Under the pieces are notes generated by a model. It had not been told where the DNA came from and did no database searches. It was given only the letters and a program-made list of their open reading frames with translations. From a virus (Duplodnaviria > Heunggongvirae > Uroviricota > Caudoviricetes): DNA of 40,040 bases. Location of the stretch: the IMG/VR virus record IMGVR_UViG_2547132278_000009, one strand, 5' to 3'. Below are positions 4,446 through 37,806 of this stretch, piece by piece; the stretch's first letter is position 1, and each line of letters opens with the position of its first letter. Made by a program: the position numbers and the translations under genes.

Positions 4446-7400
4446 TTAGTTACGTTGAGTGTTTGGGTTGAGTGATCCGCCAGGGCGTTTCTCTTGAGCG
4501 ATAGTCTCAAGCGCGATTGCTTTCATCCGTTGAGCGGCATTGTTCCATATGCTTTCTGTATCGCCGGATTCTGTCGTGCTACCGTCACTATGGACGTTGA
4601 TCTCAATTGATACAGGAGAAAGAACATTTCCTCCTCCACTCATACCATCGGTACTTAGCGTTACAGGGATTGTTCGACCATCAGGCAATGGAACATACGC
4701 CTCATTCATATCGCCTTCCCCAAACAACGCCAATTGAGGTGAGTTGGCGATACCGCCTTTCTGGTATGCCCGGAGCGGGATCACGCCGTCTTTTCCGAAT
4801 ATTCCTCCATTTGCAAACTTCGGGATTGCAGGAATGCCTTTAGTTCCGTCAGCCACACTGCTGGTTGCGGTTTTAGCAGAGCTTGATGTCACGCTGTCGA
4901 AACCACCGCCAGCCCAAGCTGAAACAAGACCAGATGCAACCGTTGCTCCAAAACTCAACCACTTATTACCAGAGCCTGAAGCATTAGCTCCAAGCATTGC
5001 AAACGCGGCAGACAGAGCGCCGGTAACAGAGCTGAGGTTCTGCATCGAGAAGATGGAGTCCTTCACTGCTTTTGTCTCAGCATCTTTGGCTTCGGTGCTA
5101 TCAAATAGCCCCGATACCCAGCTACCAATCGCATTTGTTGCTGTGCCAATTGCGCTGGTGGTCTGCTGTGTTGTTTGCCCCAATCCAGTTACCGAACTGG
5201 ACGTCTCCTTCGTGGCTTCTCCTACAGACTTGTCGCCGTTAACAGTGTTGCCCATTCGTACCCCTTGATTGGCAACGGCGGAAGCAACCCCGGTCAGCAA
5301 ATTACCACTCTGTGAACTACCAGCAGCGGTGGTTCCCATCCCCAACATGTTCATTAGAGGCAGCGTGATCTGCGACTTCACGACCATATTGGTGATATCT
5401 TTCAAAATGGACTGAGATAGGCTGGAGAAGCTCATCTTCCCGTTAATAACGAAATCAGTCAGGACATCAGTTAAGCCACTAAACAAATCAGTCCAGGTGC
5501 TTTCGATCTGCTCTGCCAGGTTTTCGTATTCCAGTGCCAACTTCTGCGTCGCAGTCCCCGTCTCTTTAATAAGCGCGGTATTGCCAGCAGCAATCAGTTG
5601 ATTGATTTTCTTTGTATAAAGCGCCACAACTTTAGGATCAGACGCCTTATCACGAAGTTCTATCAACGCTTTGAGATTGCGGTTGTAGGTGTCTTCGAAA
5701 TCAGCAACTTTCTCTTCGCGAGACGGCGTATAGCCAGCACTAATAATGGAATCCGCCTCCGGTGCCCAAGTGGAGATCATCTGCTCAACATTGCGGCGAT
5801 TAAACATCTCGCGATATTCAGGTGTCGCATTTTTGAGGTCTTCAAGACGTTTTTTCGCCTTGTCGATCATCTCTTGAGTGATGAACTCGTTAGGTACCGC
5901 ATTAGCCAAATCTGTCAGCGATTTCGTTGTATCGCGAAGAGACTGATCAAACGATACCGTAGCCTTAGAGCTTTCACCCATTTGCCCCATAAGCTGATCG
6001 GCTTTGTCCAGAGCCTTCTGGTATCCGGCTGCCAGTTTCTGTTGCGCTGCCTGTTCCTTCTTGGCCGCACGCTGCGAGGCGTTAGCTGATCGTTGGGCTG
6101 CTTTCTCGGCAGCTGCTGCATCCTGTTCACGAGCTTTAGTCAGTGCAGCAATGGCTGCGGCACGCTCTTCATCGCTCATTTTCTCCAGAGAGCTGGCGCT
6201 GGATGCTTTCTGCAAATTAAGCTGCGTCTTGAGTTGTTTAGGCCCAATAATCGGCTTACCTTCGAAGTCCATCATCGGAGTGCCGTCAGGCAAAGTACGC
6301 TGATAAGTCGCAGAATCCATCTGGTTTCGCATATATTGCGCCAGCGCCTTCTTAGCCGCTTTATCAGTTGTACCTAACCCAAGAACAGTCCCCTGGTTTG
6401 ACATTACGCCCTTACCAGTTTTGGCCGCGTTATCTCTCTCGAACTCTGCCTGAGTCAATTCCTGAGCAACGGCTTCCAAATGCTCCTGATAACCGCGAAT
6501 ACTGCCTTGCAGTTTCTGGATCTGCTCGGTATTTCCATCCTTTTTGGCTTTTTCAAGCTGATCATTAAGAGTCGCAATTTGCTTCTCGGTCGCATTCTTA
6601 CGAGAAGAAAGTGAATCAACCAGTTTTTGCGCAGGCTCCAGATAGCTTTTGTTTACCGTTTCACGTAACGGTGCCAATAGCTTGTTCTTTTCGTCATCTG
6701 AAAGTGAACCGTCATCATTGATTTTCTGGATCTTATCCAGAGCCTCTTGCCGGGCTTTCACGAATGTTGCCGCGAAAATCTGGTTTTCCGCTCGAATTTT
6801 CTCAATCTGAGATTCGGCAGCCTCTTTAGCCAAACGCTTTGCTACAGCGCCGTCACCAAGAGCTATCGTGCCGGTTATCTTTTGATACTCCTCCTGATTT
6901 TTTTTCAGGCGTGCTTCGATGTCAGCCTTCGACTCTTTGTGAGTAATAACACCGGCAGAGTTAGATACGTAATTAACACCCTCACCAGTTTTTAATGCTC
7001 GTTGATCAGCAAGAATCTGCTTTTCGAGCTTTTCTGCGCGGTCGGCCATTTGTGCACGTTTGGCCGCTGTCATCGCTTCTGGTATTTTCCTAATCTCGTC
7101 AACGACCTTTGAAGTTTCGCTGCGGAGCATGGTCATGTACGTGATTAGGCCAGCAACAGCTACAGTGGCAACTGTAAATGCTGCCCCTATAGGGTTTGCT
7201 GCAATGAACGCCGTTAATCCAGCAAAAGCGCCTTTAAGCCCCGTAATCGCCCCACGGATGGCGAAAATAAGAGAGGGGATCGGAGCCAGCCCCATACGTG
7301 CCGCACGATTGAATCGAGTTACTGCTGTAGCGCCGAGGTTAAATGGAGTCTGTATGGCGGTCGCCATCGTGGCAAAGGTGCTAACCATCTGGCTCCCAGC

Positions 7401-10482: not shown

Positions 10483-10556
10483 TGATGGAAAACTCCTTTT
10501 TCCGTTAATTCTACGCATTCATTGCGCTAATAGTAAGTATATACTTACCAATTGAG

Positions 10557-17546: not shown

Positions 17547-18803
17547 CTATCGAGAACCACCAAGAATAACACGGTTTTTGACTGGATACCTACGATGTAC
17601 TGGATAGCCCAATGCGTCTGCACTATGCTCAATGCCACCTGTCTTATCCATATCTCGTGTTCCAGGCTTGTAGATGACTTTTTCCAGTGAATCAATCAAA
17701 TGCTTGCACTTCGGATCGATATACAGCCGGATATCTCCAGATGCGGTCATCAGCATTCGGTTAACAGCATTAACACGATCCGCAATTGGCGGGTGCTTTT
17801 TCGAATAATCGACACGTAAGAATCCCTTCTCTTTGAATATGTCTACGTCAGACTCCCCACGAGCATGTTGGCGATAAGCACCTGCCGGATCTGGAAATAC
17901 CGTTACCTGTGATTTCCAGCGCCAGAAGCGTCTCTCAAGCTCATCACAAACTTCTGCCGTGTTAGAGGAAAAGAGCACCAATTCATCAATTGCCCATAGC
18001 TCACCATTTGGCTGAGGTTGCAAAATTACTGAAGACATCGGGTCAATGTTGAAGTCCTGCCCTACCCATATAGGCAACCGAGGGTTGAACTGAAGCGGTT
18101 TTACATGCACGTTACGATCGAACGGGTAGTAAACGCGCCCGGACATGTTCTCAAAGCTGGCCAGGTACTCCTGAGCGAACGATTTGGGGTCCATATCGTT
18201 CTTAGCAGCTTCAATTTCCGCCGTAGGTACAAACGGAGAATCGGCAGTTACAAACTGCCAGCTCTTCCACTGTCCCTTTCTTTGCAGCTCTACGTTCTGG
18301 CCTATAGTCCACAGTTTGTGAAATTCCGAGAAGCCTTTTGGCGTACCAATGATCAGTGCACCGCCGCGTGTCGATGAAAGAGTAGGTCGTAACACCTTGT
18401 ACCAGGTGTCAGCCTTCATATCCTGAAATTCATCAAGCACTACAAAATGCAACGCTACGCCGCGCAGAGTGTCAGGCTTATCAGCACCTTTGAGGGCGAT
18501 CTCCGAACCGTTCTTCAACACGATTGTCATCGTGGTGTCGTTCTTTTTCCTAACCCACTTACGAGGCAGAACTTCCTGTAGATCGTCCCACAAAATCTGG
18601 CGAGCCATCTGGTAAGTAGGAGCGACATACCAGACCCTTTGCTTTTTTTCCTTTGCCGCCGCACGAATAATAGTGGAGATCGACAACCGGGATTTTCCCC
18701 AGCGTCGACCAGCACAAACAACTTTAAATCGATGCGGAGACTGGAAGACTTTCATCTGTCCAGAATGCAGTTGCACAAGACTGAGCGAGGACGGGATTGC
18801 CAT
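17547..18803 (-). CDS. Terminase large subunit
   Basis: 418 aa; Walker A CAGRRWGKS, Walker B VVLDEFQD, C-terminal nuclease-like region; start overlaps stop of the small subunit gene. Confidence 0.85.
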   Translation of the reverse strand: MAIPSSLSLVQLHSGQMKVFQSPHRFKVVCAGRRWGKSRLSISTIIRAAAKEKKQRVWYVAPTYQMARQILWDDLQEVLPRKWVRKKNDTTMTIVLKNGSEIALKGADKPDTLRGVALHFVVLDEFQDMKADTWYKVLRPTLSSTRGGALIIGTPKGFSEFHKLWTIGQNVELQRKGQWKSWQFVTADSPFVPTAEIEAAKNDMDPKSFAQEYLASFENMSGRVYYPFDRNVHVKPLQFNPRLPIWVGQDFNIDPMSSVILQPQPNGELWAIDELVLFSSNTAEVCDELERRFWRWKSQVTVFPDPAGAYRQHARGESDVDIFKEKGFLRVDYSKKHPPIADRVNAVNRMLMTASGDIRLYIDPKCKHLIDSLEKVIYKPGTRDMDKTGGIEHSADALGYPVHRRYPVKNRVILGGSR

Positions 18804-19435
18804 TATTCGTCCTCCCCTTCACTTCCATCATCTGTCGCATCAAATTCGCTTAGAGCTTCTTCTTCCAACGTCTCAAGCAATTCGTCATCGATGATTTCAG
18901 GCTCGTCGTCTTCCTGACGTAATTTCGCCACCTGGGAAGGCGTAAGCTCACCAAATACCAGGTTCGGAATTTCTTCCTCGTCATTTTCCGCATGATCCAT
19001 GCCCAATGCTTTGGACGAAACTTCAAAGCATTTTGCAAGGGTATTACTGGCTCTCTGTAAGCTCTTGAGAGAATCCTCAATCGCCCCTAAAGGCTTACCC
19101 TCACGTTTGGCCGTAGTGACTTCGACCATCACCATCTGCCCCAACGCATACGCCCAGCCGTCATAACGTGTACGACGTTCTTCTATCTTTTCCGCACGGG
19201 CTTTAGCGCGAAGCTCTGCGTCAGATTTAAGAGACTCACGAACCATCTTCCCAACAGAGTCCGCGCCTTTCTCTAATCCTCGCTTTTTGAAATGTCTGGA
19301 GAGTGTTTCACGACGAATGCCGTACTCTTCCTCCAGCTTTGAGAGTGTATATTCGCCTGACGTCCATTTGGCTTCAGCTTCGGCCCACTCCGCTGGTGTC
19401 AGGCGAGTTTTTACCTCGTCTTTTTCGACCGTCAT
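18803..19435 (-). CDS. Terminase small subunit (candidate)
   Basis: 210 aa, N-terminal HTH-like region, very acidic C-terminus; directly upstream of the large subunit. Confidence 0.6.
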   Translation of the reverse strand: MTVEKDEVKTRLTPAEWAEAEAKWTSGEYTLSKLEEEYGIRRETLSRHFKKRGLEKGADSVGKMVRESLKSDAELRAKARAEKIEERRTRYDGWAYALGQMVMVEVTTAKREGKPLGAIEDSLKSLQRASNTLAKCFEVSSKALGMDHAENDEEEIPNLVFGELTPSQVAKLRQEDDEPEIIDDELLETLEEEALSEFDATDDGSEGEDE

Positions 19436-19474: not shown

Positions 19475-19517
19475 AAAACAACTTGTTTACTGCATCTGCT
19501 AACCAACTTGTTTTCTG
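19475..19517 (-). promoter_or_regulatory. Two copies of the palindromic operator family (AAAACAA-N-TTGTTT) upstream of the terminase small subunit gene
   Basis: AAAACAACTTGTTTAC (19475-19490) and AACCAACTTGTTTTCTG (19501-19517), with adjacent inverted repeat AGAGCGC-N6-GCGCTCT. Confidence 0.45.
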
Positions 19518-19630
19518 GGGTGTTTAATTAGATCTGGCATGTCTTACGAAGCCTGCTTCCGTATATATTTAATAAGTTACTTATTATTTATATATATAGA
19601 TGCAGGTCTTTAAATAAGCTCCCAGACCGA

Positions 19631-19897
19631 TTACATCACCAGTAACTTCGCTTTGGCTCGACCTAAAGTGGTTAACCCAAGAGTTCGGCGGTGATAGCGA
19701 TTGTCACTGCGTTGGCGCGTATGCCCTTTCTCCACCAGCCCCTTTTTTATCAGAGCGCGAATTGAGAACTGGATACTTTGCTTGGTTGTCTTGTACGGCA
19801 AAACTTCAAGCAATTCGTCCAGATCAAGTAGATGACCTCGCTCATAACCGAGATTGAGCGTTTTGATTATGTCCTTTTGTTTGTCGGTTAACGTCAT
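19631..19897 (-). CDS. Small basic protein, possibly winged-helix DNA binding
   Basis: 88-aa ORF 9 bp downstream of the GNAT-like gene; basic C-terminus; no firm motif. Confidence 0.35.
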   Translation of the reverse strand: MTLTDKQKDIIKTLNLGYERGHLLDLDELLEVLPYKTTKQSIQFSIRALIKKGLVEKGHTRQRSDNRYHRRTLGLTTLGRAKAKLLVM

Positions 19898-19906
19898 GGC
19901 AAATCC

Positions 19907-20797
19907 TTATGCCGGTAAAGCAATTTCTAACGGTTTATCCAAAGGTTGTTTGTCGAATGCCAGCAGTGGCAGCGTGTCAGGCAGTCGACGGCCAAAGTCA
20001 GGGTTTCGGTACACACCATACAACGGAGACGTAAAGCTCAGGTTGTGAATGTCCTTGAGCAGCTTCACAATGCTGGCCTCGTCCACCAGACTGTCGGCAA
20101 TGTCCTGAATCGTCGTGCCACGATTCCGCCCAGCTTTTGCCAGAGAACTGTTCTTGTGGTAGTCCGCCACCAAATCGCGCAGCGCACGGCGACGACGAGA
20201 CTCGCTCATAGCGAACAACTCTTTGACGATCGCCTCGTTATCACCCGGGTCGGAGCGGAAATGGCGCTGGAACACACGCAGTGCACTTTCATAGCTCTTC
20301 GGTCGCTCAGGGCGGATGAACTTAAACCCTGCTTTCATGGCGAAGGGATTGTATTTGCTCATCGAGGACTGGATCTCAATGATTGGCCGGTCATGCATCC
20401 TGCTAACCAGGTTAATCATTCGATAAGAGACGCCTACGCCACGATACTGAGTATCCACAACTGAGCGACTGATCACCGCAAAGTTGTTATTCACGTACCG
20501 ACCCCAGTACTGGTTAGCCACGGTGGTATTAGTGGTTGGTTTCAACTTAGGAAACATGCGGTGGCGAGGTGCCAACAGTAGTTTCGGGTAAGCCATAACC
20601 ACGACGCCCACCAGACGGTCATCAAGTTCGCAGCGATAGTAAGTTGGCGCGAAAGGTTTGCCGTCTGTTTTGTAGTGAAGCGACTTAAGAGCGTGCCAGT
20701 CCTCTACAGTTCCCTTTGTAACAGTCATTCGCTCCAGAAAGTCCAGATGACGCGGAAACTCTTCAGGGCGGTAGCGTTTAATGATGATGTCCGTCAT
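19907..20797 (-). CDS. GNAT-like acyltransferase-fold protein with extra C-terminal domain (hypothetical)
   Basis: 296 aa; YRGVGVSYRMINLV resembles GNAT motif A (R/Q-x-x-G-x-G/A); start overlaps the ATPase stop by 4 nt. Confidence 0.4.
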   Translation of the reverse strand: MTDIIIKRYRPEEFPRHLDFLERMTVTKGTVEDWHALKSLHYKTDGKPFAPTYYRCELDDRLVGVVVMAYPKLLLAPRHRMFPKLKPTTNTTVANQYWGRYVNNNFAVISRSVVDTQYRGVGVSYRMINLVSRMHDRPIIEIQSSMSKYNPFAMKAGFKFIRPERPKSYESALRVFQRHFRSDPGDNEAIVKELFAMSESRRRRALRDLVADYHKNSSLAKAGRNRGTTIQDIADSLVDEASIVKLLKDIHNLSFTSPLYGVYRNPDFGRRLPDTLPLLAFDKQPLDKPLEIALPA

Positions 20798-21459
20798 GAA
20801 TGGACCTCATCATGACTACCATTGTGATATTCCACCTTCACGCGTTCTTTGTAGTGCTTGGTGATCTGCATATCCGGGCGCAGCGCGTTCTTCAGGTCTT
20901 CGTGAGTCGTCGCCACCATTACCGTCGCACCAACCTTTCGAGCGGCACGCTGGAGGTTAGACGCCACAACCTGAGCGGTTACACGGTCGAGAACAGCGCC
21001 GAACTCGTCAGCAGCCCATACTTTAGCGCCTGACTCAATCAGTTTGGCAATCTTGAGACGATATTTCTGGCCGTCTGACATTTCAGAAGGCTTGCGAACA
21101 AACAGATATGCATCGTTCAGACCAGCCATAGATAACAACCCAAGCGCATCACTGGTCGTTTTGCCCAACTGATCGATGACGTTAACCTCATTATCGAAGG
21201 TAAAATCATCGATGGAGGCTACAGAAAGCCCTTCATCCTTCATCTGGCGTTGCAACTCGCGCAGCACAACGGATTTGCCGGAACCGGATTGGCCGGTGAT
21301 GTACACCACATCGCCCTGCTTCACTTCCAGCTCCAGATTGTCGTAAAGCGTCCACTCTTTTTCGTCCAGGCCAAGCCCGAACGACTCAGCGATTTCCAAC
21401 GTGCGCGTGGTTTTATTTACGCGTGTCTGAAACGATACGTTGATGATGTATTTGCTCAT
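20794..21459 (-). CDS. Minimal ABC-type ATPase (stand-alone nucleotide-binding domain)
   Basis: 221 aa; Walker A GQSGSGKS, signature-like SDGQKYRL, Walker B VWAADEFGAVLD, H-loop ATTHEDL; overlaps both neighbours by 4 nt. Confidence 0.7.
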   Translation of the reverse strand: MSKYIINVSFQTRVNKTTRTLEIAESFGLGLDEKEWTLYDNLELEVKQGDVVYITGQSGSGKSVVLRELQRQMKDEGLSVASIDDFTFDNEVNVIDQLGKTTSDALGLLSMAGLNDAYLFVRKPSEMSDGQKYRLKIAKLIESGAKVWAADEFGAVLDRVTAQVVASNLQRAARKVGATVMVATTHEDLKNALRPDMQITKHYKERVKVEYHNGSHDEVHS

Positions 21460-22124
21460 GCAGCCATCTCCCCGGAAGAGATCTTCTCCGCATATGCCAC
21501 AAATGCGTCTACCCCGCTTTCTCCCGTCATTTCTTCCATGTGGGCAAGCAAATCACCAACAACAATGGCAGAGCCAGCAGGGAGCGTTTTAAAGCCCAAT
21601 ACGTCGACAACACGTACTTCTTCCGCTGCAACTTCACGACTGATCTCGGTGTGTTCATCCTTCTGTCGTTTAGTTTCTTCGCCAAGATCGATAACTAGCG
21701 AATCGGTGTCCATTTCTTCTGTCATACTGCCAACGAGAACATTCAACTCACGCTCTTCAAAGCCGAAAACCTCGATATCGTCCAGAACAAGCGACTCAAG
21801 CTCTTTCTGTAGCTTAATTGCATCGTAATCAATGCTGGCAAGTCGGTTATCTTCAAGGCGCTTCGCACGAACCTCGTCATCACTGAGATCATCGCGAACA
21901 ATAACCGGTACGCGCTCAAGTCCAGCAAAAATTGCAGCCTCACGGCGGCCGTGGCCAGTAATAATTACGTCGTTCTTATCGACCGTAATTGGCTGGTCAA
22001 ATCCGCGCTTTTTAATGGCTGCGGCCAGATCTCGGATCTGCTGTTCATCATGCTTTTTGGCATTCATCTCATAGGGAATAAGATCTGCCGGGTCGCGATA
22101 TACGATTTCAAACTTTTTGGTCAT
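21456..22124 (-). CDS. ParB/Srx-like N-terminal domain protein (second of two)
   Basis: ITGHGRREAAIFAG matches the ParB arginine motif (GxxRxxA); probable start MTKKF overlapping the upstream stop as TAATG. Confidence 0.65.
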   Translation of the reverse strand: MTKKFEIVYRDPADLIPYEMNAKKHDEQQIRDLAAAIKKRGFDQPITVDKNDVIITGHGRREAAIFAGLERVPVIVRDDLSDDEVRAKRLEDNRLASIDYDAIKLQKELESLVLDDIEVFGFEERELNVLVGSMTEEMDTDSLVIDLGEETKRQKDEHTEISREVAAEEVRVVDVLGFKTLPAGSAIVVGDLLAHMEEMTGESGVDAFVAYAEKISSGEMAA

Positions 22125-22822
22125 TACATACGCTCCTTGTAGTAGTCGACCAGCCACACCAGAGCCTCACCAGCGTTCTCCATTTCATTACCGGTGTTAA
22201 TAGCCTGCTCTTTGATGATGTTTTTTATGGTTTCTGCAACACGATCTGACGCATCGAAAGTTACTTTGAAGCGCATGGTCTGATGTTCCGCACCCACACG
22301 TTCGGTTTTCTCTCGTTTGTCGGTATCGACAGGCTCATCACTACCACGAGACAACGCCTCCAGTGCTTCAAGGTCGATTGCCGCCTCTTTTGCTAAAACC
22401 ATCGAGATTTCGTCGTCATACGGGGCGATTTCAGACAGTTGATAGTCAAGTTCTGACTGAATTTCTTCAATGAAGCGTTGCAATGCGATTTGGTCGTCTT
22501 CACCGTATCGCTCGTTGTCCACCAGTGACATCTGTTTAGCTACGACATCGCTAATTTTGCCCACAGAAAGCACCGGAACCGTTGAAATTCCTTGCTCAAT
22601 AGCAGCACGCCAGCGATGTTCGCCGCCGAGGATTTCAAAAAATCCATCTTCAAGTTCACGAGCCAAAATTGGCTTAAAAAAGCCCAATTTTTCGATAGAA
22701 CCTTTCAGTTTTTCAAAATTCTGCGCACCAACCGAATTGGTGTTCCAGGTATTCGGGCGAAGGTTGGCAACATCAACCTGCAAAATCGTGATTTTTACAT
22801 CCATTTTATTGCTACAATCCAC
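22124..22822 (-). CDS. ParB/Srx-like N-terminal domain protein (first of two)
   Basis: ILGGEHRWRAAIEQG matches the ParB arginine motif; first gene of the operon, divergent from the helicase. Confidence 0.7.
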   Translation of the reverse strand: MDCSNKMDVKITILQVDVANLRPNTWNTNSVGAQNFEKLKGSIEKLGFFKPILARELEDGFFEILGGEHRWRAAIEQGISTVPVLSVGKISDVVAKQMSLVDNERYGEDDQIALQRFIEEIQSELDYQLSEIAPYDDEISMVLAKEAAIDLEALEALSRGSDEPVDTDKREKTERVGAEHQTMRFKVTFDASDRVAETIKNIIKEQAINTGNEMENAGEALVWLVDYYKERM

Positions 22823-25218: not shown

Positions 25219-25747
25219 TGACATGACAACCAAAGATATTACCTACGGTATCCAAGCTGAACTCTGGCCGCGAGATTACACTAACGTTGAAAAACTACTG
25301 ATGTTCTGGCGCAGAGAACAAATTCCTGTAAGGGTCACTCTCGAAGATGGCCAGGCGTTTTGCATGTACGTTTATGGCCTCATGCCATCTCGTAACAAAG
25401 TTGACCTTTGCCCAGCCCCTTTTGACAAAGAAAATCGTATAAGGCTCCCACTTGAACGCATTAGTACAATTGAATCAGGTGTGGTTGACAGTATCGCTCA
25501 CGATTTCAAAGGTCGACTAACAGTTCACCCTGATTATGTCGATAATCGGCCATCACGCCGCGATTTTTTTGCAATTTGCAACCAAGCCTACAAAGCAAAC
25601 AAATCTATAAGGGTGTACATGGCGGATGGCCGTGAAATTGAGGGGGTGTCAGCAGGCGCAGATGCTTGTCAGGTTACACTACGTGTCGAGAACGGTAGAA
25701 AAATAGTTGTTTTGTTCGATTGGGTTGAACGAATTTTGCCTTTTTGA
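25214..25747 (+). CDS. Hypothetical protein with apparent internal duplication
   Basis: ORF 25145..25747; likely start MTTKDITYG overlapping the lipoprotein stop; two similar segments (IPVRVTLEDGQAFCMYVYG / IRVYMADGREIEGVSAG). Confidence 0.45.
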   Translation, partial: CDDMTTKDITYGIQAELWPRDYTNVEKLLMFWRREQIPVRVTLEDGQAFCMYVYGLMPSRNKVDLCPAPFDKENRIRLPLERISTIESGVVDSIAHDFKGRLTVHPDYVDNRPSRRDFFAICNQAYKANKSIRVYMADGREIEGVSAGADACQVTLRVENGRKIVVLFDWVERILPF

Positions 25748-27497: not shown

Positions 27498-27502
27498 AAT
27501 CG

Positions 27503-27530
27503 AGCGCCCACTATGGGCGCTTTTTTCGTT
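27503..27530 (+). terminator. Rho-independent terminator (hairpin copy 2 plus T6)
   Basis: AGCGCCCA-CTA-TGGGCGCT followed by TTTTTTCG. Confidence 0.7.
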
Positions 27531-27547
27531 TCCAATACTCCCACCAT

Positions 27548-27577
27548 AACGCGCCAATGATGGCGCGTTTTTTATTG
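27548..27577 (+). terminator. Second tandem rho-independent terminator
   Basis: GCGCCA-ATGATG-GCGCG followed by TTTTTTATT. Confidence 0.6.
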
Positions 27578-27986
27578 TCTTTGATTCACTCCAACAACAT
27601 AAAAACAAGCGCCAAAATAACGCCATAGACGCACTTTTATATCCTTACCAGTACATACCCATTACTTAACACATTAACGCGCTTAAAACGCGTTATATTG
27701 CGCTATAGCGCATAATTAATCATTGGCTTTTAGTCTTGCTATGTGATCCGCGTTTAATTGTCGGCGCGGATCGGCATTTTGTTTTGTTCCGTATCCGCTC
27801 GCGTATTATGTGCGCGTGATTTTCACATAATCACACCACTTAATCACGTATGTGATTATGCTACGAAAGAAATCTGGATGTCTCAGGCGACGAAAGTCAT
27901 CATAATTTTCCCCGCTCACCTGTCCGACAACCGCTGGTTGGATTCCACCAGCTTCCCGATGTTTTTTCTACATAAAGGCGAATGCA

Positions 27987-28099
27987 GCCGTTTCCCGAAA
28001 AAATCCTGGCCGTTTCCCGTCGGCTCATGAATACGTTCCTCGCCGTTTCTGAAAATTTCCCTGCGGCAGCTGGTGTCTATAGAGAAAGGGCCGTTTCTG
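27987..28099. repeat. Iteron-like direct repeat array A (GCCGTTTCC/GCCGTTTCTG, 4 copies)
   Basis: GCCGTTTCCC at 27987 and 28009 (22 bp apart), GCCGTTTCTG at 28042 and 28090. Confidence 0.6.
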
Positions 28100-28112
28100 G
28101 CCCTCTTCTCAG

Positions 28113-28595
28113 TTACACGCCATCAAGGATGTGGATGCGGTTGCTTGCGTATACATTCAGCATAAAGTTAGCGCAAAACAGTTTCCATGTATCAACGCCA
28201 GCGGCATACGTAATGTTTTTGCATTTTATTGCATTGTTGGCGATCCGCATCCCCTGTGATACTGCTTCATCGTCGGAAAATTTGAACGACGATTGAGTTT
28301 TAATCCAGACAGAAATCTGCGTAGCGAACTCAATCAGCTTGGACTGGCAGAATCGCCCGGAGCGCACCGGAAAGACGAACGTTCCGAATCCAGAATTTAC
28401 CACATACGCTTTCTCAAATACCCGCGAGTAACGACGATTGCCAATGATGTCGCGTGCAATAATGCATTTTTCTTGTGCTGACAGTTCTACCGTCTCATTG
28501 TCGCGCCATGCACCAAGTACTCGTTTTTCAATGTCAGAGAACGTTACAGCGATATTGCCATGTGCGGGTGCGTTTACAGTAGCGATAAAATTCAT
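28113..28595 (-). CDS. Hypothetical protein (160 aa)
   Basis: ORF with GGAAT RBS-like and the palindromic operator 20-40 bp upstream; no motif recognised. Confidence 0.5.
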   Translation of the reverse strand: MNFIATVNAPAHGNIAVTFSDIEKRVLGAWRDNETVELSAQEKCIIARDIIGNRRYSRVFEKAYVVNSGFGTFVFPVRSGRFCQSKLIEFATQISVWIKTQSSFKFSDDEAVSQGMRIANNAIKCKNITYAAGVDTWKLFCANFMLNVYASNRIHILDGV

Positions 28596-28612
28596 GATTA
28601 ATTCCTTATCGT

Positions 28613-28632
28613 AAATAACAAATTGTTTTCTT
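28613..28632 (-). promoter_or_regulatory. Palindromic operator copy (AACAAATTGTT core) upstream of the 160-aa gene
   Basis: AATAACAAATTGTTTTCTTG read directly; flanking TTAATTAACACCAACAAG block is shared with the site at 31143. Confidence 0.45.
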
Positions 28633-28797
28633 GTTGGTGTTAATTATCGTTGTACGAATAAGGCGTCAAAGTGGAAAGTTGCGGTAGCCGGACGGGAACA
28701 GGTGGGTTTGTCGGTTGCCTGGAGGTAAGAGGTTGGTGTTATTAGCCTGAGGGAAACAGGATGGTCATTTAAGACCACCAATGCTGGTGGCCTTAAT

Positions 28798-28943
28798 AAT
28801 TATCGCACGATTACGCTAAGGATCTTTTCCTCAACTGATTTGTTGTTGCGACTAAACTGCCTTGCGTATCTGATGACAGAAGAGGCGTTTTGCTTTCTGA
28901 CCATCTCGGCTCTTTCCTTCAGGCGTTTCTTGAAATCGCCCAT
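28798..28943 (-). CDS. Possible small basic protein (48 aa), below the ORF-track cutoff
   Basis: Hand translation MGDFKKRLKERAEMVRKQNASSVIRYARQFSRNNKSVEEKILSVIVR; ATG 2 nt after the upstream stop with GGTGG upstream. Confidence 0.3.
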
Positions 28944-28945
28944 AT

Positions 28946-29320
28946 TTACCACCAGGCGCAGAAGGTCAGTCTGTTATTGTGAAAGTCGTGGTTCTTAATC
29001 AGGTCTTCCACAAGCTCTTTCAACTGCCCCACATCATGCCAGTAACCTTCATCGTACTCCTGACTGCCGAAGAAAAAACCTTCCCGGGTAGGCAAGTACT
29101 CTTCGCAATTACTTTCGTTTATGTGCATCAAATGAGCCTTCAGAAAACAAATGTCATTCATCGTTAATTCTAAAAGCTCACAATTTTCGACTTCACCTAC
29201 GTTGCGCTCCATCCACCCAACGAGCGCATTGAACTTACGGAAGTAAGCAACCTGCTTTCTGGATGCCTCGTTATTCAGATCGTTTTTAGGCTGTGTCTCG
29301 ATATAGATATCAAGTCCCAT
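28946..29320 (-). CDS. Hypothetical acidic protein (about 124 aa)
   Basis: ORF 28946..29362; probable start MGLDIYIETQ; operator copy and hairpin upstream. Confidence 0.5.
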   Translation of the reverse strand: MGLDIYIETQPKNDLNNEASRKQVAYFRKFNALVGWMERNVGEVENCELLELTMNDICFLKAHLMHINESNCEEYLPTREGFFFGSQEYDEGYWHDVGQLKELVEDLIKNHDFHNNRLTFCAWW

Positions 29321-29375
29321 GATGGTTTCCTTATTAACTTGCTTCAGTGAAATCATTTTCACAAATCAGATAAGG

Positions 29376-29395
29376 CAGAAAACAAATTGTTATCG
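29376..29395 (-). promoter_or_regulatory. Palindromic operator copy upstream of the acidic 124-aa gene
   Basis: CAGAAAACAAATTGTTATCG; adjacent hairpin GGCGCG-N6-GCGCC likely terminator of the upstream gene. Confidence 0.45.
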
Positions 29396-29437
29396 GGCTT
29401 AATAAAATGGCGCGGTTTACGCGCCATTTAAAGAGGA

Positions 29438-29833
29438 TTAAGCGAATACGCTTTCAGGGATTAAGGTGTCGGCAGGAATGCCAGAGGTAATGCGCAGGCC
29501 GTACTGACCAATCCAGGTAGTGTTGGTATTCAGGCTGGAGGCGAATACGGTGTTAACCATATTCATCATGGTTTCAAACACCTCTTCATCAACCTGGCGG
29601 AAGTAGTTCTCGATTTTCAGCAGCAGCGGGTCAGTTGCATCGAGAATGGACTGGTATTGAGTCGCGTACTCGCCGCCGGAGGCATCACCTTTACGCACGA
29701 TCGTACTGGCCTGGACTTCGGCACCAGTTTCGGTGTTGTACGTAACAACGGTGATTTTTGCCACATTCTTACCTTCGGCGGTTTCAGAGGCATAGTAAAC
29801 ATCAACTGTCAGTTTTTCGCGTTTAACGGTCAT
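29438..29833 (-). CDS. Hypothetical protein (131 aa)
   Basis: ORF with GGAGAGTG RBS-like sequence upstream; no motif recognised. Confidence 0.5.
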   Translation of the reverse strand: MTVKREKLTVDVYYASETAEGKNVAKITVVTYNTETGAEVQASTIVRKGDASGGEYATQYQSILDATDPLLLKIENYFRQVDEEVFETMMNMVNTVFASSLNTNTTWIGQYGLRITSGIPADTLIPESVFA

Positions 29834-29959
29834 TTCACTCTCCGTAGTGTATTGGTTATTTTTCTATTCTATGATCGTAAGTATGTACTTACAATACAAA
29901 AAAGCCCCGTAAGGATGGCGGGGCTGTCGTACTGTCGACTAATTGCCACTTGCACATTA

Positions 29960-30271
29960 TCAGGCTATTGCCATCACTGATGCTCTCTGAATCTCTTGCT
30001 GGGCCACGCGGTTAACTTCCATCAAAGCCAGTTCGAGCTGATGTTCCGGCCACATTCTTTGAAATGCCACCCAGCCTTTTCCACGCTGGCGACGAACATT
30101 CATTACATAACGAGTAAAGGTGTTTTTATCGAAAGACACCGCTGTTTCACGGAACAGACGAATAGAGGTTCCATTGGCAACGATGTCCAGCAAAGTTAAT
30201 TGAGCAACCAGCGCAGGCTTCTCTTTTCTCTTCTGGTCTTTGTCCAGACCAAGAACCAATGATTTTTTCAT
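29960..30271 (-). CDS. Hypothetical basic protein (103 aa), possible DNA-binding protein
   Basis: ORF 29960..30301; start MKKSLVLG at 30271 with GGAG RBS; K/R-rich. Confidence 0.5.
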   Translation of the reverse strand: MKKSLVLGLDKDQKRKEKPALVAQLTLLDIVANGTSIRLFRETAVSFDKNTFTRYVMNVRRQRGKGWVAFQRMWPEHQLELALMEVNRVAQQEIQRASVMAIA

Positions 30272-30280
30272 TACAACTCC

Positions 30281-30299
30281 GTAAACAACTTGTTTTCTC
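30281..30299 (-). promoter_or_regulatory. Palindromic operator copy (GAAAACAA-G-TTGTTTAC) in the 5' leader of the basic-protein gene
   Basis: Read directly; lies within a ~60-bp module duplicated at 30765-30840. Confidence 0.5.
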
Positions 30300-30424
30300 A
30301 ATGGCGTAAATAATACCAGTAAGAAAACGGCTACAAAGCATATTGATCAGGCGCATGAGCGATATGCAGGTTCTTCCCTGCGGCTATAGAGAAATTAAGC
30401 CAGCAATGCTGGCTTTGGTTGGGG

Positions 30425-30754
30425 TTACTCGAATACTTCAAGAAACTCCTGAACGTCCCAATGCTGGACAAGGTGAAGATAGACCTTAGAAATAACGTCA
30501 TTCTCGCTATCGCATGTGAAGTAGAACTTCTGGCTGCGGTTGTATGTGTCCACACAAAATTCGCTCATATCCATAAAGTCAGCATCATCACCCAGGTCGC
30601 AAATCATCAAAGCAGGAGCATCATCACGAGTCATCAGCTCAAGCACCCAGCGCGAATTGATCAGCGTGGAAGACCAACCTTCTAACTCATAAAACTGGTC
30701 AAACTCTTTTTGAGTCATTTTCTTGATTTGGTTGATGTCGATATTTGCAAACAT
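30425..30754 (-). CDS. Hypothetical acidic protein (about 109 aa)
   Basis: ORF 30425..30820; start MFANIDINQ at 30754 with AAGGAT RBS; net acidic, D/E-rich. Confidence 0.5.
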   Translation of the reverse strand: MFANIDINQIKKMTQKEFDQFYELEGWSSTLINSRWVLELMTRDDAPALMICDLGDDADFMDMSEFCVDTYNRSQKFYFTCDSENDVISKVYLHLVQHWDVQEFLEVFE

Positions 30755-30764
30755 AACGCAATCC

Positions 30765-30783
30765 TTAAACATGTTGTTTTCTG
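30765..30783 (-). promoter_or_regulatory. Palindromic operator copy (GAAAACAA-C-ATGTTTAA) upstream of the acidic 109-aa gene
   Basis: Read directly; part of duplicated promoter module. Confidence 0.5.
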
Positions 30784-30892
30784 AATTGCGTAAACAATAC
30801 CAGTAAGAAAACGGCCACAAAGTATATCGTTACGGTGCTGCGCTGCCCGGAGGTTAATAGCGACAAAAGCCACCGTGCTGGTGGCCTCACTC

Positions 30893-31111
30893 TTAATCTT
30901 CGTCGCCCGGGAACTCGCTGTGTACCGCGTCCACCAGCTCCCGCTTTTCATCTTCACTCAGCAGGTGCCAGATATCCTTCCCTTTGGGCGATTCCCCTTC
31001 TGCCGGGACGAACGACCACAACTTGCGGTACAACTCCGGCCCCACTGCATCCAGACACTCAGCCAGGGATTCCACGCCCCACACCTCAACCGTCACAGGC
31101 ATCTTAATCAT
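30893..31111 (-). CDS. Hypothetical small acidic protein (72 aa)
   Basis: ORF with GAGGATGAAGAG RBS-like leader; acidic C-terminus EFPGDED. Confidence 0.45.
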   Translation of the reverse strand: MIKMPVTVEVWGVESLAECLDAVGPELYRKLWSFVPAEGESPKGKDIWHLLSEDEKRELVDAVHSEFPGDED

Positions 31112-31142
31112 CTCTTCATCCTCACTTCGTTTATATAACGTC

Positions 31143-31159
31143 TAAACATGTTGTTTACT
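31143..31159 (-). promoter_or_regulatory. Palindromic operator copy upstream of the 72-aa gene
   Basis: TAAACATGTTGTTTACT with the same flanking TTAATAACACCAACAAG block as the site at 28613. Confidence 0.45.
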
Positions 31160-31491
31160 TGTTGGTGTTATTAACGCAATAAGACAAAGGCGAAAAAGGA
31201 TTTTATTCCGGTGAATGTGGTTTTGGCAGTGAGTTTTCAGGTTCAGTACCGAGTACACTTTTTACATTATTCTGATTTAGTGGCCGAAAGTGGCTGGTGG
31301 CAGAGTAATCCTCTCCCCAAAAACCTACTGAAATCGATTGTGCCCCGTTGGCTGTCTGGCACAATTACGCTGTAGCTGGGCATTCAGAGGGAATCCAGCG
31401 GTAAGCAAGCCCGCCTACGTGAGCGCCTCTCTTCTTCCCGCACATTACAGGTGGGTAGCCGCAACTCTCCCTCTCGCTATACCGGTACGCC

Positions 31492-31622
31492 GCCGTTCCT
31501 GAACCGGCATCGAGCCTTTTCCCGAAATCCACACAGGCAACTCGACCGTTTCCCTGAAAATCCCCAGCCGTTCCCCGAAGGCAACCCAGCCGTTTCTGTA
31601 GCGGGATGCAACCTTTTCCCTG
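31492..31622. repeat. Iteron-like direct repeat array B (6 copies of G/A-CCGTTTCC-type units at about 22-bp spacing)
   Basis: Units begin at about 31492, 31514, 31545, 31567, 31589, 31610; several followed by GAAA. Confidence 0.65.
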
Positions 31623-31699
31623 TATGGACCGAAGACTGACCGTAGGGGTGTTACGGGGGGATAAAATCAGGAGTTGAATAAATACGAAAAAGGAGGCGA

Positions 31700-32600
31700 C
31701 ACCCCTCCTTCCCTCCCCACTTATACATACCTGGCTTCTTCGCTATACATGTTGTGTTTTATCTGTCTCAACCTCTCTATAGGCGTTAATGCTCACTCCT
31801 TCCAGAATGTTCTATACGGCGACTATTTCTGTTGGTGAATTGGGTGTGTTGTTTTCTCTGTCGGTGTATGTGGTTTCGTTCGTTTTGCGGTGGTTCTTCT
31901 ATGGGGTGTTCTCGTCGTTTTGGTGATTGTTCTTCTCCGTGTATGGAGTAATGGCAGGTGGGCGATTGCTTTCGTTATTGTGTTTGAGTTGTTTGTCTGG
32001 AGTGTGTGAAAGGCTTTTGTAGTTATTCGTGTATTGGGTAATGGCGTTTCCCGTGATTGTTATGTTTCGTGTCTTTTGGGATTGAGAGAAACCTTGCGGT
32101 TATAGGCTTCGTTGGGTTTTCAGTGATTCTGGTGTTTCTTCGCTGTTTGGGGAATGGCGTGTCGTGGGTATTGCGCGTATGAATGTTTTCGGATTGCCTG
32201 TGAAAGTTAGGTTGGCTGTCCGGTAGCCTGGGGAGAAGAGGTGGGTCTTTTCGGTAGCCTGCCATAAAGAGGTTGGTTGTTTTTGGGAATGGCATTTGTG
32301 TTATTTAGTTGTTTTGTTATGCCTGAAAATAAGTTGTTTATATGGTTGTGTAACGCAACGGGAGCGATTTTGAGCGTGTGTTTTTGTTGGTAGTGTGTTG
32401 GGTCGTCTGTGGTGAAAATTGGACGCTGTGGCGCTGTCTGCTGCGTAGAATTACGGGTATAAGAAGTGATGTGTGAAAACGTCAATTTTTTAGACCAAAT
32501 CGGGTGAAAGCGTTGATGTTTCGTTGATCTGTTATTCAGTTGTTTTCTTGATTGTATAAACAACTATAACTTATTGATATTTAAGGATGTGATTGCGGGT
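31700..32600. other. About 0.9 kb ORF-free tract with extreme G+T richness on the plus strand
   Basis: Long runs of G/T-only words; recurring GG(G/T)AATGGC units near 31951, 32037, 32143, 32287; only low-complexity ORFs. Confidence 0.6.
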
Positions 32601-32682
32601 ATGGAAAGGGAGTAGTGGCGATCAACGGATTCTTATAGAAAAGAATCAAATTGTGACCGCCATTATCAATGAGTTGCAACCG

Positions 32683-33252
32683 TTAGTTGTTCAGATAAAC
32701 ATTTGGAACACGGACGTAGAAGTTCCTGTCGCCGGTAAGTTCCAGAGTAATGTTAATGTCATTACCATTGTCTAGTGTAGCCGTTGCTCTATAGAACTTA
32801 TCCGTCACCTTGTCCTCTATTGTCACCTTCATACATTTTGGTGCAGTCGAACCGTTATTCTCTTTCAGAATAGTTGTCACGAGAGGGCAGGCTGCTTCTT
32901 CAAGAGCAACCTCGTCCTTGTGTGGGATGCCGATGAAGATAATCCAAGCCAGCGACGCAACGATTATGATAAATGGCACTCTGCTGCCTTTTGTAATAGT
33001 CGCGCGCTTCCAGAGATAGACAGGCAGGAGGAATACCCCCCATAGAATTGAAGGTGGTTCACAGCCAGACTCCGATAGAGCCATTCTGTCAGCTACTAAC
33101 AAACCGATGGTAGTTACACCCCCAATTATAATAGCGTAATTGGTATACTCTTCCGGCGATACTCCAAAGAAGAAAGGCATGAACGCTAGAATCCACGCAT
33201 AAATGTTATTCAGAGGTTTTGTTTGTTGGTTCTGGGTTTCCATCACATCCAT
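32683..33252 (-). CDS. Membrane protein (about 3-4 predicted transmembrane helices plus C-terminal soluble domain)
   Basis: 189 aa; hydrophobic segments IYAWILAFMPFFFG, AIIIGGVTTIGLLV, ILWGVFLLPVYLW, FIIIVASLAWIIFIGI. Confidence 0.55.
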   Translation of the reverse strand: MDVMETQNQQTKPLNNIYAWILAFMPFFFGVSPEEYTNYAIIIGGVTTIGLLVADRMALSESGCEPPSILWGVFLLPVYLWKRATITKGSRVPFIIIVASLAWIIFIGIPHKDEVALEEAACPLVTTILKENNGSTAPKCMKVTIEDKVTDKFYRATATLDNGNDINITLELTGDRNFYVRVPNVYLNN

Positions 33253-33404
33253 TCCATCACATAAAAATCGCGTTTATATATTATCAATTTTCTCACTTGT
33301 ATAACCTAAATACGCATCCGTTTATCAATTCACCTTCCACAAACATCAGCTTTAGCTATGAAAAATAACAATCTCAAAGTGAAAACCATTATCATAGGAA
33401 ACGA

Positions 33405-33590
33405 TTAGATGAGATGGTCTAATTCATCATCTATCATTGCTTTAACACTTGAGTCATTAACCCCGTATTGATTTATGAACCGTTTCAGCTCCGGTGAAAA
33501 CTGAAGGTAGATATCGTGAGCGTTTTTCACTGTAGGTTCAACGCCACGCATTTCAAGCGCCTTTAGTAGATATGAGTCTTCTTTAAGCAT
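33405..33590 (-). CDS. Hypothetical small protein (61 aa)
   Basis: ORF downstream of the 102-aa gene, likely co-transcribed. Confidence 0.4.
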   Translation of the reverse strand: MLKEDSYLLKALEMRGVEPTVKNAHDIYLQFSPELKRFINQYGVNDSSVKAMIDDELDHLI

Positions 33591-33626
33591 AAATTCTCCG
33601 TTGTCTAGTATGAAGCGATTGCCGGA

Positions 33627-33935
33627 TTACCATTGCCAGCACTCTAGCCCTTCAACGACCGGTGCACCACAATCAAAATGTACAGAGTCAAAGCCTACAT
33701 CAAGTACTTTCTGAATGTTAGCAATCGCGCCTTCGGATATACCATATCGACGCAAGTCCTCTTTCCAGACATCATCCTGTAACCCGGCGTGGACAATACA
33801 ACCGCCGTCAATTTGTGAAACCCAATCCAGCTCATTGCTTGCGATCATGAATCGGCGAGCATCTTCCTCTGATGTATGAGATGAACTGATCAATGCCACC
33901 TGGTAGGCTTGGGTAATGTTCAACATTTCAACCAC
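33627..33935 (-). CDS. Hypothetical acidic protein (102 aa)
   Basis: ORF preceded by two operator copies; acidic composition. Confidence 0.5.
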   Translation of the reverse strand: MVEMLNITQAYQVALISSSHTSEEDARRFMIASNELDWVSQIDGGCIVHAGLQDDVWKEDLRRYGISEGAIANIQKVLDVGFDSVHFDCGAPVVEGLECWQW

Positions 33936-33937
33936 TC

Positions 33938-34007
33938 CAAAACAATTTGTTTTCTTATGTGGCTTATTATCTCAATCAACAAAAGGTAGAAAACAAATTG
34001 TTTTAGG
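33938..34007 (-). promoter_or_regulatory. Two perfect or near-perfect copies of the 17-bp palindromic operator
   Basis: CAAAACAATTTGTTTTC (33938-33954) and GAAAACAAATTGTTTTA (33991-34007), just downstream of the metG terminator. Confidence 0.5.
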
Positions 34008-37416: not shown

Positions 37417-37806
37417 CTACATCACGGGACAATCATCAAACTCGCCACTTCTTGCGTCGTTGATAATGTGAGTGATCACACCAAACACGGCATTGCTGCC
37501 CGTGCATCCATCGTCATCCTTTGGCAATGCTTCCTTCTTACCGGTTCTTAAATCCTCCAGATGCTGACGTGGATACTTCCGGTATCTTTTTACGCGATAT
37601 TCCCCATCCAGAGCGCATACAAGCAGAGAACCATCAACCGGGGTAAGTGAGGAATCGACCACCAGCAATGCACCCTGTAATATTCCCTCACGATGATGAC
37701 TATCAGCTGCCCTCATGAAGTAGGTCGCTGAAGGATGTCTAATTATCTGCTGATCAAGAGAAATACGGCTCTCAGCATAATCCGCCGCAGGAGAAGGGAA
37801 GCCCAT
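37417..37806 (-). CDS. UmuD-like S24 peptidase-family protein, without an adjacent umuC
   Basis: 129 aa; GFPSPAADY..., HPSATYF and GVITH match E. coli UmuD; Ser and Lys of the S24 dyad appear present (DSH..., VKR). Confidence 0.8.
   Translation of the reverse strand: MGFPSPAADYAESRISLDQQIIRHPSATYFMRAADSHHREGILQGALLVVDSSLTPVDGSLLVCALDGEYRVKRYRKYPRQHLEDLRTGKKEALPKDDDGCTGSNAVFGVITHIINDARSGEFDDCPVM

Follow-up and report, generated by a model that had tools for sequence, protein, structure and literature searches.

Results and discussion

Two look-alike leaders in an array of small genes

The stretch of DNA analysed here (the window; 40,040 nt; IMG/VR virus record IMGVR_UViG_2547132278_000009) carries on its minus strand two adjacent small genes with closely similar leaders, one encoding a basic protein of 103 aa (29960..30271; isoelectric point (pI) 10.5; family F0, in 78 of 80 loci) and the other an acidic protein of 109 aa (30425..30754; pI 4.2; family F5, a variable cassette in 36 of the 80), the latter matching no Pfam family. 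The 80 loci used for comparison throughout comprise 74 viral contigs around homologues of the 103-aa gene and six plasmid loci, and the small-gene array at 28113-33926 differs among them. Positions 27500-32500 are 99.4% identical to the E. coli plasmid pHH107-1 (109.7 kb, non-mobilizable) and match 735 plasmid records from Klebsiella, Escherichia, Enterobacter, Yersinia, Salmonella and others, as well as the phages Cyrano, PhiR41_1, CMS-2020a and, weakly, SSU5. Because of these matches and the gene content of the annotated relative, which encodes tail, capsid, portal, terminase, dnaE, a DnaB-like helicase, nrdAB, thyA, a ParA-like ATPase and an integrase, the window is a piece of an SSU5/pHCM2-type phage-plasmid of E. 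coli. Nearly all of its genes, including every gene headed by the leaders described here, lie on the minus strand.

The leaders of the 103-aa gene (copy A, 30278..30354) and the 109-aa gene (copy B, 30762..30838) were paired by a repeat finder at 83% identity over 77 ungapped nt. A direct count gave 64 matches of 77, whereas 200 shuffles of the whole window averaged 36 and never exceeded 41, and the core of the pair reached 90.7% identity over 54 nt (blastn, E = 1e-14). The gap from the end of the repeat to the start codon is 11-12 nt for both genes alike. With hexamers read directly from the sequence, copy A runs from a -35-like TTTGTA (30332-30337) over 16 nt to an extended -10, TGG plus TATTAT (TGGTATTAT, 30310-30318), and then over 14 nt to a palindrome, AAACAAGTTGTTT (30283-30295), which is followed by the Shine-Dalgarno sequence ACGGAG (30277-30282), 5 nt and an ATG ending at 30271. 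Copy B is laid out in the same way, with TTTGTG (30816-30821), TGGTATTGT (30794-30802), the palindrome AAACAACATGTTT (30767-30779) and the Shine-Dalgarno sequence AAGGAT (30761-30766). The similarity of the two leaders noted in the preliminary description was thus confirmed, at a level far over that of the shuffled window, and the second pair of related leaders that it had named, before the genes at 28595 and 31111, was likewise recovered (28617-28642 against 31145-31170; 88% identity over 26 nt, repeat finder). In other genera all four leaders converge on one consensus, GATAAT(T/A)ACACCAACAAGAAAACAAnTTGTTT, and the conserved columns are the same across upstream alignments; for these reasons the two pairs are lineage variants of one module and not separate families.

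A family-specific module ahead of genes throughout the element

The core of all leaders in the neighbourhood is a 13-bp dyad, AAACAAnTTGTTT, a perfect palindrome of 6+1+6 that usually has AGA in front. Read along the minus strand, the module consists of a weak -35, a -10 of the form GATAAT or TGnTATTAT, 13-14 nt, AGA-AAACAAnTTGTTT, a Shine-Dalgarno sequence and the ATG, such that the palindrome starts at a fixed 13-14 nt past the -10 but may lie anywhere between 11 and 60 nt before the start codon. The leaders are more uniform still in the loci of pHCM2 (Salmonella Typhi), Klebsiella, Enterobacter and Citrobacter, as in the example CTTGGACGCC, N10, GCGATAATTAAACCAACAAGAAAACAAGTTGTTTAAAGGA, N9, ATG, which by elements reads TTGGAC, 16 nt, GATAAT, 13-14 nt and the palindrome. 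When all distinct upstream regions of each gene family were aligned, conservation was highest in the -35 block and, more than anywhere else, in the columns running from the -10 to the end of the palindrome. The 80 loci hold 536 palindromes in five genera, with the 13-bp dyad near-invariant, and of the 46 palindrome pairs that bracket a promoter 44 are set exactly 51 bp apart, the upstream member being the reverse complement of the downstream one, asymmetric AGA flank included.

This signal is not confined to the small-gene array. The window holds 12 palindromes at up to two mismatches, where 3.8 were expected and none of 100 shuffles reached 12, whilst pHH107-1 holds 17 at up to one mismatch (12 + 4 + 1) against 0.92 expected (0.41 + 0.41 + 0.10). 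All 17 are intergenic and 16 of them lie 11-60 nt upstream of minus-strand genes, which encode a DUF7238 protein, a CobT-like protein, the DnaB-like helicase, the ParA-like ATPase, nrdB, the terS-like gene (two tandem sites), a TerB-like protein, a 189-aa protein and the small genes of the window. The logo of these 17 sites reads T.A.TTA..CAaac.AGAAAACAA.TTGTTT. In SSU5, 13 palindromes occur within 26 kb, some of them ahead of a DNA methyltransferase gene, and when a 42-nt consensus of the module was compared with 50,697 phage records it matched solely 13 SSU5-like records. We conclude from this distribution that the module would be a family-specific control signal used genome-wide, ahead of about 15 transcription units. 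The pair seen in the preliminary description is real, but the signal extends round the genome and also heads replication and packaging genes.

The genome-wide count bears directly on whether the leaders are alike merely by chance, as AT-rich promoters may be, or through a recent local duplication without wider meaning. The 30278/30762 pair does have derived substitutions in common (TTACTGG, TTTACGCnATT) that are without counterpart in other genera, and a recent duplication in the E. coli lineage is therefore indicated. As a full explanation, however, chance or a meaningless duplication has next to no probability and was ruled out by a match count (64 of 77) well beyond the best shuffle (41), by the 17 genome-wide sites where about 0.9 were expected and by the maintenance of the module across genera.

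Elsewhere in the window, the 72-aa gene (30893-31111) has its own module at 31144..31196 (minus strand, as are the other modules, the orphan palindrome and the 50-aa frame in this paragraph), with the palindrome at 31144-31156 and a -10-like TAATAA at 31168-31173, and the 160-aa gene (28113-28595) has one at 28616..28669, composed of TTGACG (28664-28669), GATAAT (28643-28648) and a palindrome (28616-28628). Upstream of the 124-aa cassette gene (28946-29320) a hairpin (29405-29429) and then a palindrome (29380-29392) occupy 29380..29429. The DUF5983 gene (33627-33926) is preceded by a predicted double-operator promoter (33940..34003), in which two palindromes (33991-34003 and 33940-33952), inverted relative to each other and 51 bp apart, lie around GATAAT (33966-33971). 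The terS-like gene (18803-19435), the first of the packaging/head block, follows a module at 19476..19530 with tandem palindromes (19501-19513 and 19476-19488) and TAATTA (19525-19530) upstream of them. One orphan palindrome with no gene behind it (32327..32339) was kept in six of six plasmid loci; it stands in a repeat-rich non-coding stretch of about 1.4 kb (31200-32600), which, together with 27980-28060 and 28677-28737, contains several dispersed repeat families with units such as GGTAGCCTGG..GAGGTGGGT, CCGTTTCCC and GTAATGGC, and which is kept across genera and often rearranged. A very basic 50-aa open reading frame (ORF; pI 11; 28800-28952) overlaps the end of the 124-aa gene. Between 34088 and 37379 the window also carries metG, encoding methionyl-tRNA synthetase, and an apbC/Mrp-type iron-sulfur carrier gene, here on a phage-plasmid.

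Cassette exchange at the module

The preliminary description had likened the arrangement to gene cassettes swapped behind a standard promoter, and comparison of the 80 loci bore this out, since 22 unrelated protein families were found directly behind the module, in more than 40 array compositions. Among this cargo are an HD_4 phosphohydrolase, an Ivy lysozyme inhibitor, a TerB protein and numerous proteins without assigned function. Behind each small gene stands a G+C-rich hairpin with promoter-like hexamers after it, at 29903..29925 after the 103-aa gene (read from the sequence), at 30397..30415 after the 109-aa gene (AAGCCAGCATTGCTGGCTT, terminator-like), at 30869..30886 after the 72-aa gene (GGCCACCAGCACGGTGGC, 78% identical to a hairpin at 28782-28804) and at 29405-29429, all on the minus strand. 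With a module in front and a hairpin behind each small gene, the cassettes can be regarded as self-contained predicted units of promoter, operator, Shine-Dalgarno sequence, ORF and terminator.

The limits of homology between related loci cluster at the module. Among close E. coli relatives, homology of L017 with L020, L013 and L015 stops at 5904-5906, beside a palindrome at 5880-5892; that of L013 with L015 stops at 1583 and 1718, with palindromes at 1568 and 1703; and that of L018 with L017 stops at 4129 and 4490. Between the window and L006 there is a homology break at 30782|31143, and the 72-aa gene is missing in L006, the 377-bp difference ending inside the palindromes at 30767 and 31144, whose spacing is exactly 377 bp. 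L006 also has an extra cassette encoding 93 aa behind the same leader, inserted at the terminator hairpin at 28764-28797. The slot that varies most is bounded on its left by the palindrome at 29380-29392. When 29 distinct E. coli-type loci were compared, 14% of alignment ends lay within 15 nt of a palindrome centre compared with 2.4% of random positions, an enrichment of about 6-fold. What was directly observed comprises the repeat, where it stands round the genome, how well it is conserved, how its cargo varies and that breakpoints fall at the module.

The 109-aa gene illustrates how such exchange may have shaped the leaders first noticed. Its promoter is of the type found before the 103-aa gene where the 72-aa gene is present and of the 72-aa type where that gene is absent, and the palindrome of copy B, AAACAACATGTTT, is the variant of the 72-aa module whilst its promoter part resembles copy A. 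The 109-aa leader is therefore a chimera in which the 103-aa promoter is joined to the operator of another module, and unequal crossing-over within the operator, if it occurred, explains all three states of this leader. It was also observed that the imperfect palindrome before the 109-aa gene, in gene orientation, is AAACAACATGTTT in the window (30767-30779) and AAACATGTTGTTT in L006 (4368-4380); the two are reverse complements of each other, like a flipped operator.

More generally, recombination between modules and between terminators would delete, duplicate or replace whole units (Shine-Dalgarno sequence, ORF and terminator) while the promoter ahead of them stays the same, a turnover that would follow from the presence of many copies of a module of about 40 bp and of a similar hairpin for each small gene. 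By this route the pair of leaders described above would have arisen when the 103-aa promoter became fused, within the operator, to the 109-aa cassette with its own operator variant and Shine-Dalgarno sequence. Such exchange resembles homologous recombination between repeats of regulatory DNA more than it does an integron-type site-specific system. It could be argued that the palindrome is itself a site-specific recombination site at which a dedicated recombinase moves the cassettes, as at attC in integrons, given that cassette boundaries coincide with it and that the element encodes a tyrosine integrase. We regard this as very improbable, as the breakpoints are spread from about -15 to +25 about the palindrome centre instead of falling at a single phosphodiester bond, the same site heads conserved core genes that do not move, and, in contrast to those of integrons, every cassette either comes with a promoter or acquires one. 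The core site of a tyrosine recombinase, moreover, does not have the shape of a dyad with a 1-bp spacer.

A predicted promoter and operator

We lean, with moderate confidence, towards a reading of the module as a sigma-70-type promoter combined with a DNA operator for a plasmid-encoded regulator, in which the repeated copies also serve as homology for cassette shuffling. The promoter would be one read by the host sigma-70-type polymerase, with a weak to moderate -35 and a -10 of GATAAT or TGnTATTAT; the operator AGA-AAACAAnTTGTTT would occupy roughly +8 to +20 of the transcript, as counted from the predicted start, and a short leader with the Shine-Dalgarno sequence would complete the module. 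A DNA-binding regulator encoded by the plasmid would sit on the palindrome and keep about 15 transcription units quiet in the plasmid-prophage state, namely the packaging, replication and nucleotide-metabolism genes together with the small-gene array, and at some promoters two inverted operators 51 bp apart would act as a clamp. What we infer is that the promoters are active, where their transcripts start, that they are repressed and what kind of protein binds the site.

Published RNA-seq data for a lysogen of strain LF82 carrying Cyrano allow a comparison with the plasmid-prophage state. In LB-grown cells the values for the module-led genes CYRAN_1, 101, 105, 106, 108, 110 and 111 were 5.7-25, the prophage median being 9.8, that of the putative repressor CYRAN_45 96 and that of the S24 peptidase CYRAN_98 148 (PMC9928086, S1 table). 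These data fit silent module promoters, whether through repression or through a missing activator. In the same lysogen CYRAN_109, the Cyrano counterpart of the 50-aa ORF, stood about 6-fold above background and its neighbours did not. CYRAN_98, which was among the top-expressed prophage genes and was higher still inside macrophages, has as its homologue in the window an S24 peptidase of 129 aa without a DNA-binding domain (37417-37806, minus strand).

If the palindrome instead bound a phage-encoded positive factor, or marked a phage-specific class of promoter, the silence in the lysogen would reflect the absence of the activator. The background expression would suit this equally, as would the weak -35 and -10 hexamers, especially at the packaging, helicase and nrdB promoters (TCTAAT, TGTTTA), and the very strong conservation from -10 to +20, such as is seen where dedicated factors read promoters. 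We nevertheless consider an activator improbable, for a site about 14 nt past the predicted start is classic for repressors and unusual for activators, the inverted paired sites around promoters resemble repression loops, and the annotated relative showed neither an RNA polymerase nor a sigma factor of phage type. A host nucleoid protein such as IHF might occupy the palindrome in an architectural role at promoters, since AAACAAnTTGTTT, compared by eye, differs from the IHF consensus, WATCAANNNNTTR, at two positions. This too is most unlikely, given that a near-invariant, perfect 13-bp dyad (536 sites, five genera) is far tighter than host IHF sites and that the module is confined, among phage records, to one phage family.

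Candidate binders of the palindrome

Among the proteins encoded by the element, the two with ParB-N domains beside the packaging genes are candidate regulators. They belong to an operon at 19631-22822 (minus strand) that also encodes an ABC-type ATPase, a 296-aa protein and an 88-aa protein; this operon adjoins the predicted double-operator packaging promoter on its upstream side and showed background expression in the Cyrano lysogen. The 103-aa basic protein was considered as an autoregulated repressor. Its homologues are confined to the SSU5/pHCM2-type phage-plasmid family, and its structural model (predicted local distance difference test (pLDDT) 79), in which four beta strands and a long helix at the C-terminus follow a basic, disordered N-terminal part, gave no significant match in the PDB and no recognisable DNA-binding fold, so that such a role is unsupported. 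The helix-turn-helix repressor beside the integrase was also rejected as the binder, its own control region having a different palindrome, GGTAAGCACTTACC.

Palindromes of another type may belong to that repressor. One, GTAAGTATRTACTTAC, overlaps a TTGTAA-17-TAGAAT promoter of a 131-aa gene (29877-29892) and recurs in an intergenic gap of the tail-gene region (10533-10548), and a related one, GTAAGCACTTAC (L002 17374-17385), lies directly upstream of the helix-turn-helix repressor gene of pHH107-1. Palindromes of the GTAAGTATRTACTTAC/GTAAGCACTTAC type may therefore be the operator of this repressor, and those of the GTAAGTATRTACTTAC type probably mark a second, smaller regulon.

The most interesting candidate is a full-length FljA-family protein (25223-25747, plus strand; PF03614, E = 2.5e-84). 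Its AlphaFold model (pLDDT 81) has two tandem domains, each of a helix plus five strands, and at least one of these matches Hfq (probability 1.0, TM 0.7-0.83, root mean square deviation about 1.3 A, 57 residues). The gene is core in SSU5-like elements, those of Klebsiella included. Klebsiella is non-flagellate and therefore offers no fliC target to such a protein. FljA-type proteins are described as preventing translation of fliC mRNA in the passage of PMC2652032 that cites Yamamoto and Kutsukake (2006).

This raises the question of whether the conserved leader acts as RNA, the FljA-family protein binding the transcripts of the module and blocking their translation or destabilizing the mRNA, much as FljA acts on the 5' untranslated region of fliC. 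Each transcript from a module would then open with a common 5' leader, an A-rich (A-R-N)n stretch, AACAAGAAAACAA, followed by UUGUUU. The full-length PF03614 protein, the tandem Hfq-like domains predicted in it and its status as a core gene, also in Klebsiella elements, would all accord with such a scheme, as would the fliC leader of Salmonella and Citrobacter, in which AACATCAAGTTGTAATTGATAAGGA has the 8-mer CAAGTTGT in common with the palindrome, directly upstream of the Shine-Dalgarno sequence. The match to CAAGTTGT was, however, spotted post hoc, and the E. coli fliC leader (TCAACGACTTGCAAT) is without this 8-mer; it was discarded as a look-alike of the module, being dissimilar to it, and the Salmonella leader has the 8-mer alone in common with the module. 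What chiefly counts against recognition as RNA, and leads us to rate it as unlikely, are the inverted copies of the asymmetric site 51 bp upstream, which lie outside the leader or antisense to it and suit recognition as DNA. The exact C/G mirror symmetry, in addition, has no rationale in RNA because no stable hairpin can form, and the distance to the -10 is fixed whereas that to the start codon ranges from 11 to 60 nt.

No leader matched Rfam, and five leaders when folded had no shared or significant structure (z-scores +0.4 to -1.7); a known RNA family or leader structure was accordingly dropped. On balance we prefer to see the site as a DNA operator, with its centre some 14 nt past the predicted start, because an RNA element must keep one orientation whereas a dimeric DNA-binding protein need not, as with the inverted copies at 51 bp, and because the position of the site is fixed relative to the -10 and variable relative to the start codon, in leaders without a fold or an Rfam family. 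A more specific proposal, that the A-rich tract and UUGUUU ahead of the ribosome-binding site are the target of the FljA-family protein in a global post-transcriptional regulon, of whose regulator FljA is a domesticated offshoot, seems to us doubtful and slightly less probable than RNA-level action as such. Were it true, SSU5-type phage-plasmids would run a global post-transcriptional regulon via a dedicated Hfq-like repressor, and FljA, which acts in the flagellar phase variation of Salmonella, would descend by domestication from a phage regulator.

Several points weigh against the combination of sigma-70-type promoter, DNA operator and cassette shuffling that we prefer. No regulator of the palindrome was found among the candidates examined; the one clear helix-turn-helix repressor of the element adjoins another palindrome, GTAAG..CTTAC, and Pfam searches of the ParB-N pair, the ABC ATPase, the 88-aa protein and the terS-like protein returned no informative DNA-binding domain. 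The module promoters are poor matches to sigma-70 and were absent from the output of a consensus promoter scan, their hexamers having been read by eye and backed by conservation across genera. A simple dimer operator does not account for the conserved A/C-rich stretch (ACACCAACAAGA) that separates the -10 from the palindrome, and background RNA in the lysogen would be equally expected of activator-dependent promoters. As for shuffling, no more than about 14-18% of alignment ends fall at palindromes, and many rearrangements of the region lie elsewhere, particularly in the repeat-rich non-coding stretch.

Significance and comparison with known systems

Phage-plasmids of the SSU5/pHCM2 type are common in E. 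coli, Salmonella Typhi, Klebsiella and Enterobacter. In the literature we found neither a description of the module in this family nor an account of how its members switch between plasmid maintenance and lytic growth, and none of the four 13-mer variants of the palindrome, nor the 16-mer ACACCAACAAGAAAAC, occurred in the searchable literature. One operator before packaging, replication and accessory genes would offer an experimental handle on the maintenance/lytic circuit, and the same module would explain the turnover of small accessory genes in these elements. The module combines an operator regulon with mobile regulatory cassettes, and each half has counterparts elsewhere.

On the side of the regulon, a specific sequence was found far above chance at a fixed promoter position, as a dyad usable in either orientation, much as in known repressor regulons. 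In the phage-plasmid P1 the operators of the C1 repressor are dispersed at many promoters, including those of a dnaB-type helicase and other replication functions, so that both are plasmid-prophages with one operator sequence at many promoters round the genome. The P1 operator, however, is a 17-bp asymmetric sequence unrelated to AAACAAnTTGTTT, and P1 operators are not known as cassette boundaries. KorA/KorB of RK2 and the CUP repeats of the IncN plasmid pKM101 are comparable in that palindromes of 12-13 bp, or upstream repeats of about 100 bp, stand at many promoters of one replicon, and the CUP repeats precede small genes of the leading region and have been proposed as recombination sites. 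These systems differ in that their sequences and proteins are unrelated and that they belong to conjugative plasmids, and no homologue of KorA or ArdK was found here.

On the side of the cassettes, the morons of lambdoid prophages are likewise autonomous units of promoter, small gene and terminator placed between neighbouring genes, but each of them has a promoter of its own and is as a rule expressed even while the prophage is repressed, whereas here the promoter is standardized and the Cyrano homologues remain at background in the lysogen. Integrons resemble the array in consisting of small, mostly unassigned genes that vary by presence or absence at one locus. They differ in that the array described here shows neither an attC structure nor an integrase of the IntI type, the one integrase of the element being located, in the near-identical plasmid, at a distance of about 55 kb; here, too, every gene has a promoter to itself and breakpoints lack precision.

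The closest known system is the promoter-early stem-loop (PeSL) elements, the mobile regulatory cassettes of T4-type phages (Arbiol et al., 2010, PMC2839356; Comeau et al., 2014, PMC4122927). Both are short composites of a sigma-70-like promoter and a stem-loop terminator (here as read from the sequence), both occur in many copies (here 17 per genome) around small non-essential genes without assigned function in variable regions, and in both, where close relatives differ by an insertion, deletion or replacement, the difference ends inside the cassettes, so that recombination between repeats is indicated. The module differs in its setting, a temperate siphovirus-like phage-plasmid as opposed to a virulent T4-like myovirus, and in its sequence, which lacks the T4-type consensus, the module being confined to SSU5-like phage records; it also has an extra near-invariant 13-bp palindrome past the -10 and heads conserved replication and packaging genes as well. 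Excised mini-circles, the product of recombination between neighbouring cassettes, have been demonstrated experimentally for PeSLs. Because both phage family and sequence differ, the module would seem to work like a PeSL without being a member of that group, and the idea of the mobile regulatory cassette would thereby be widened from virulent T4-type phages to temperate phage-plasmids.

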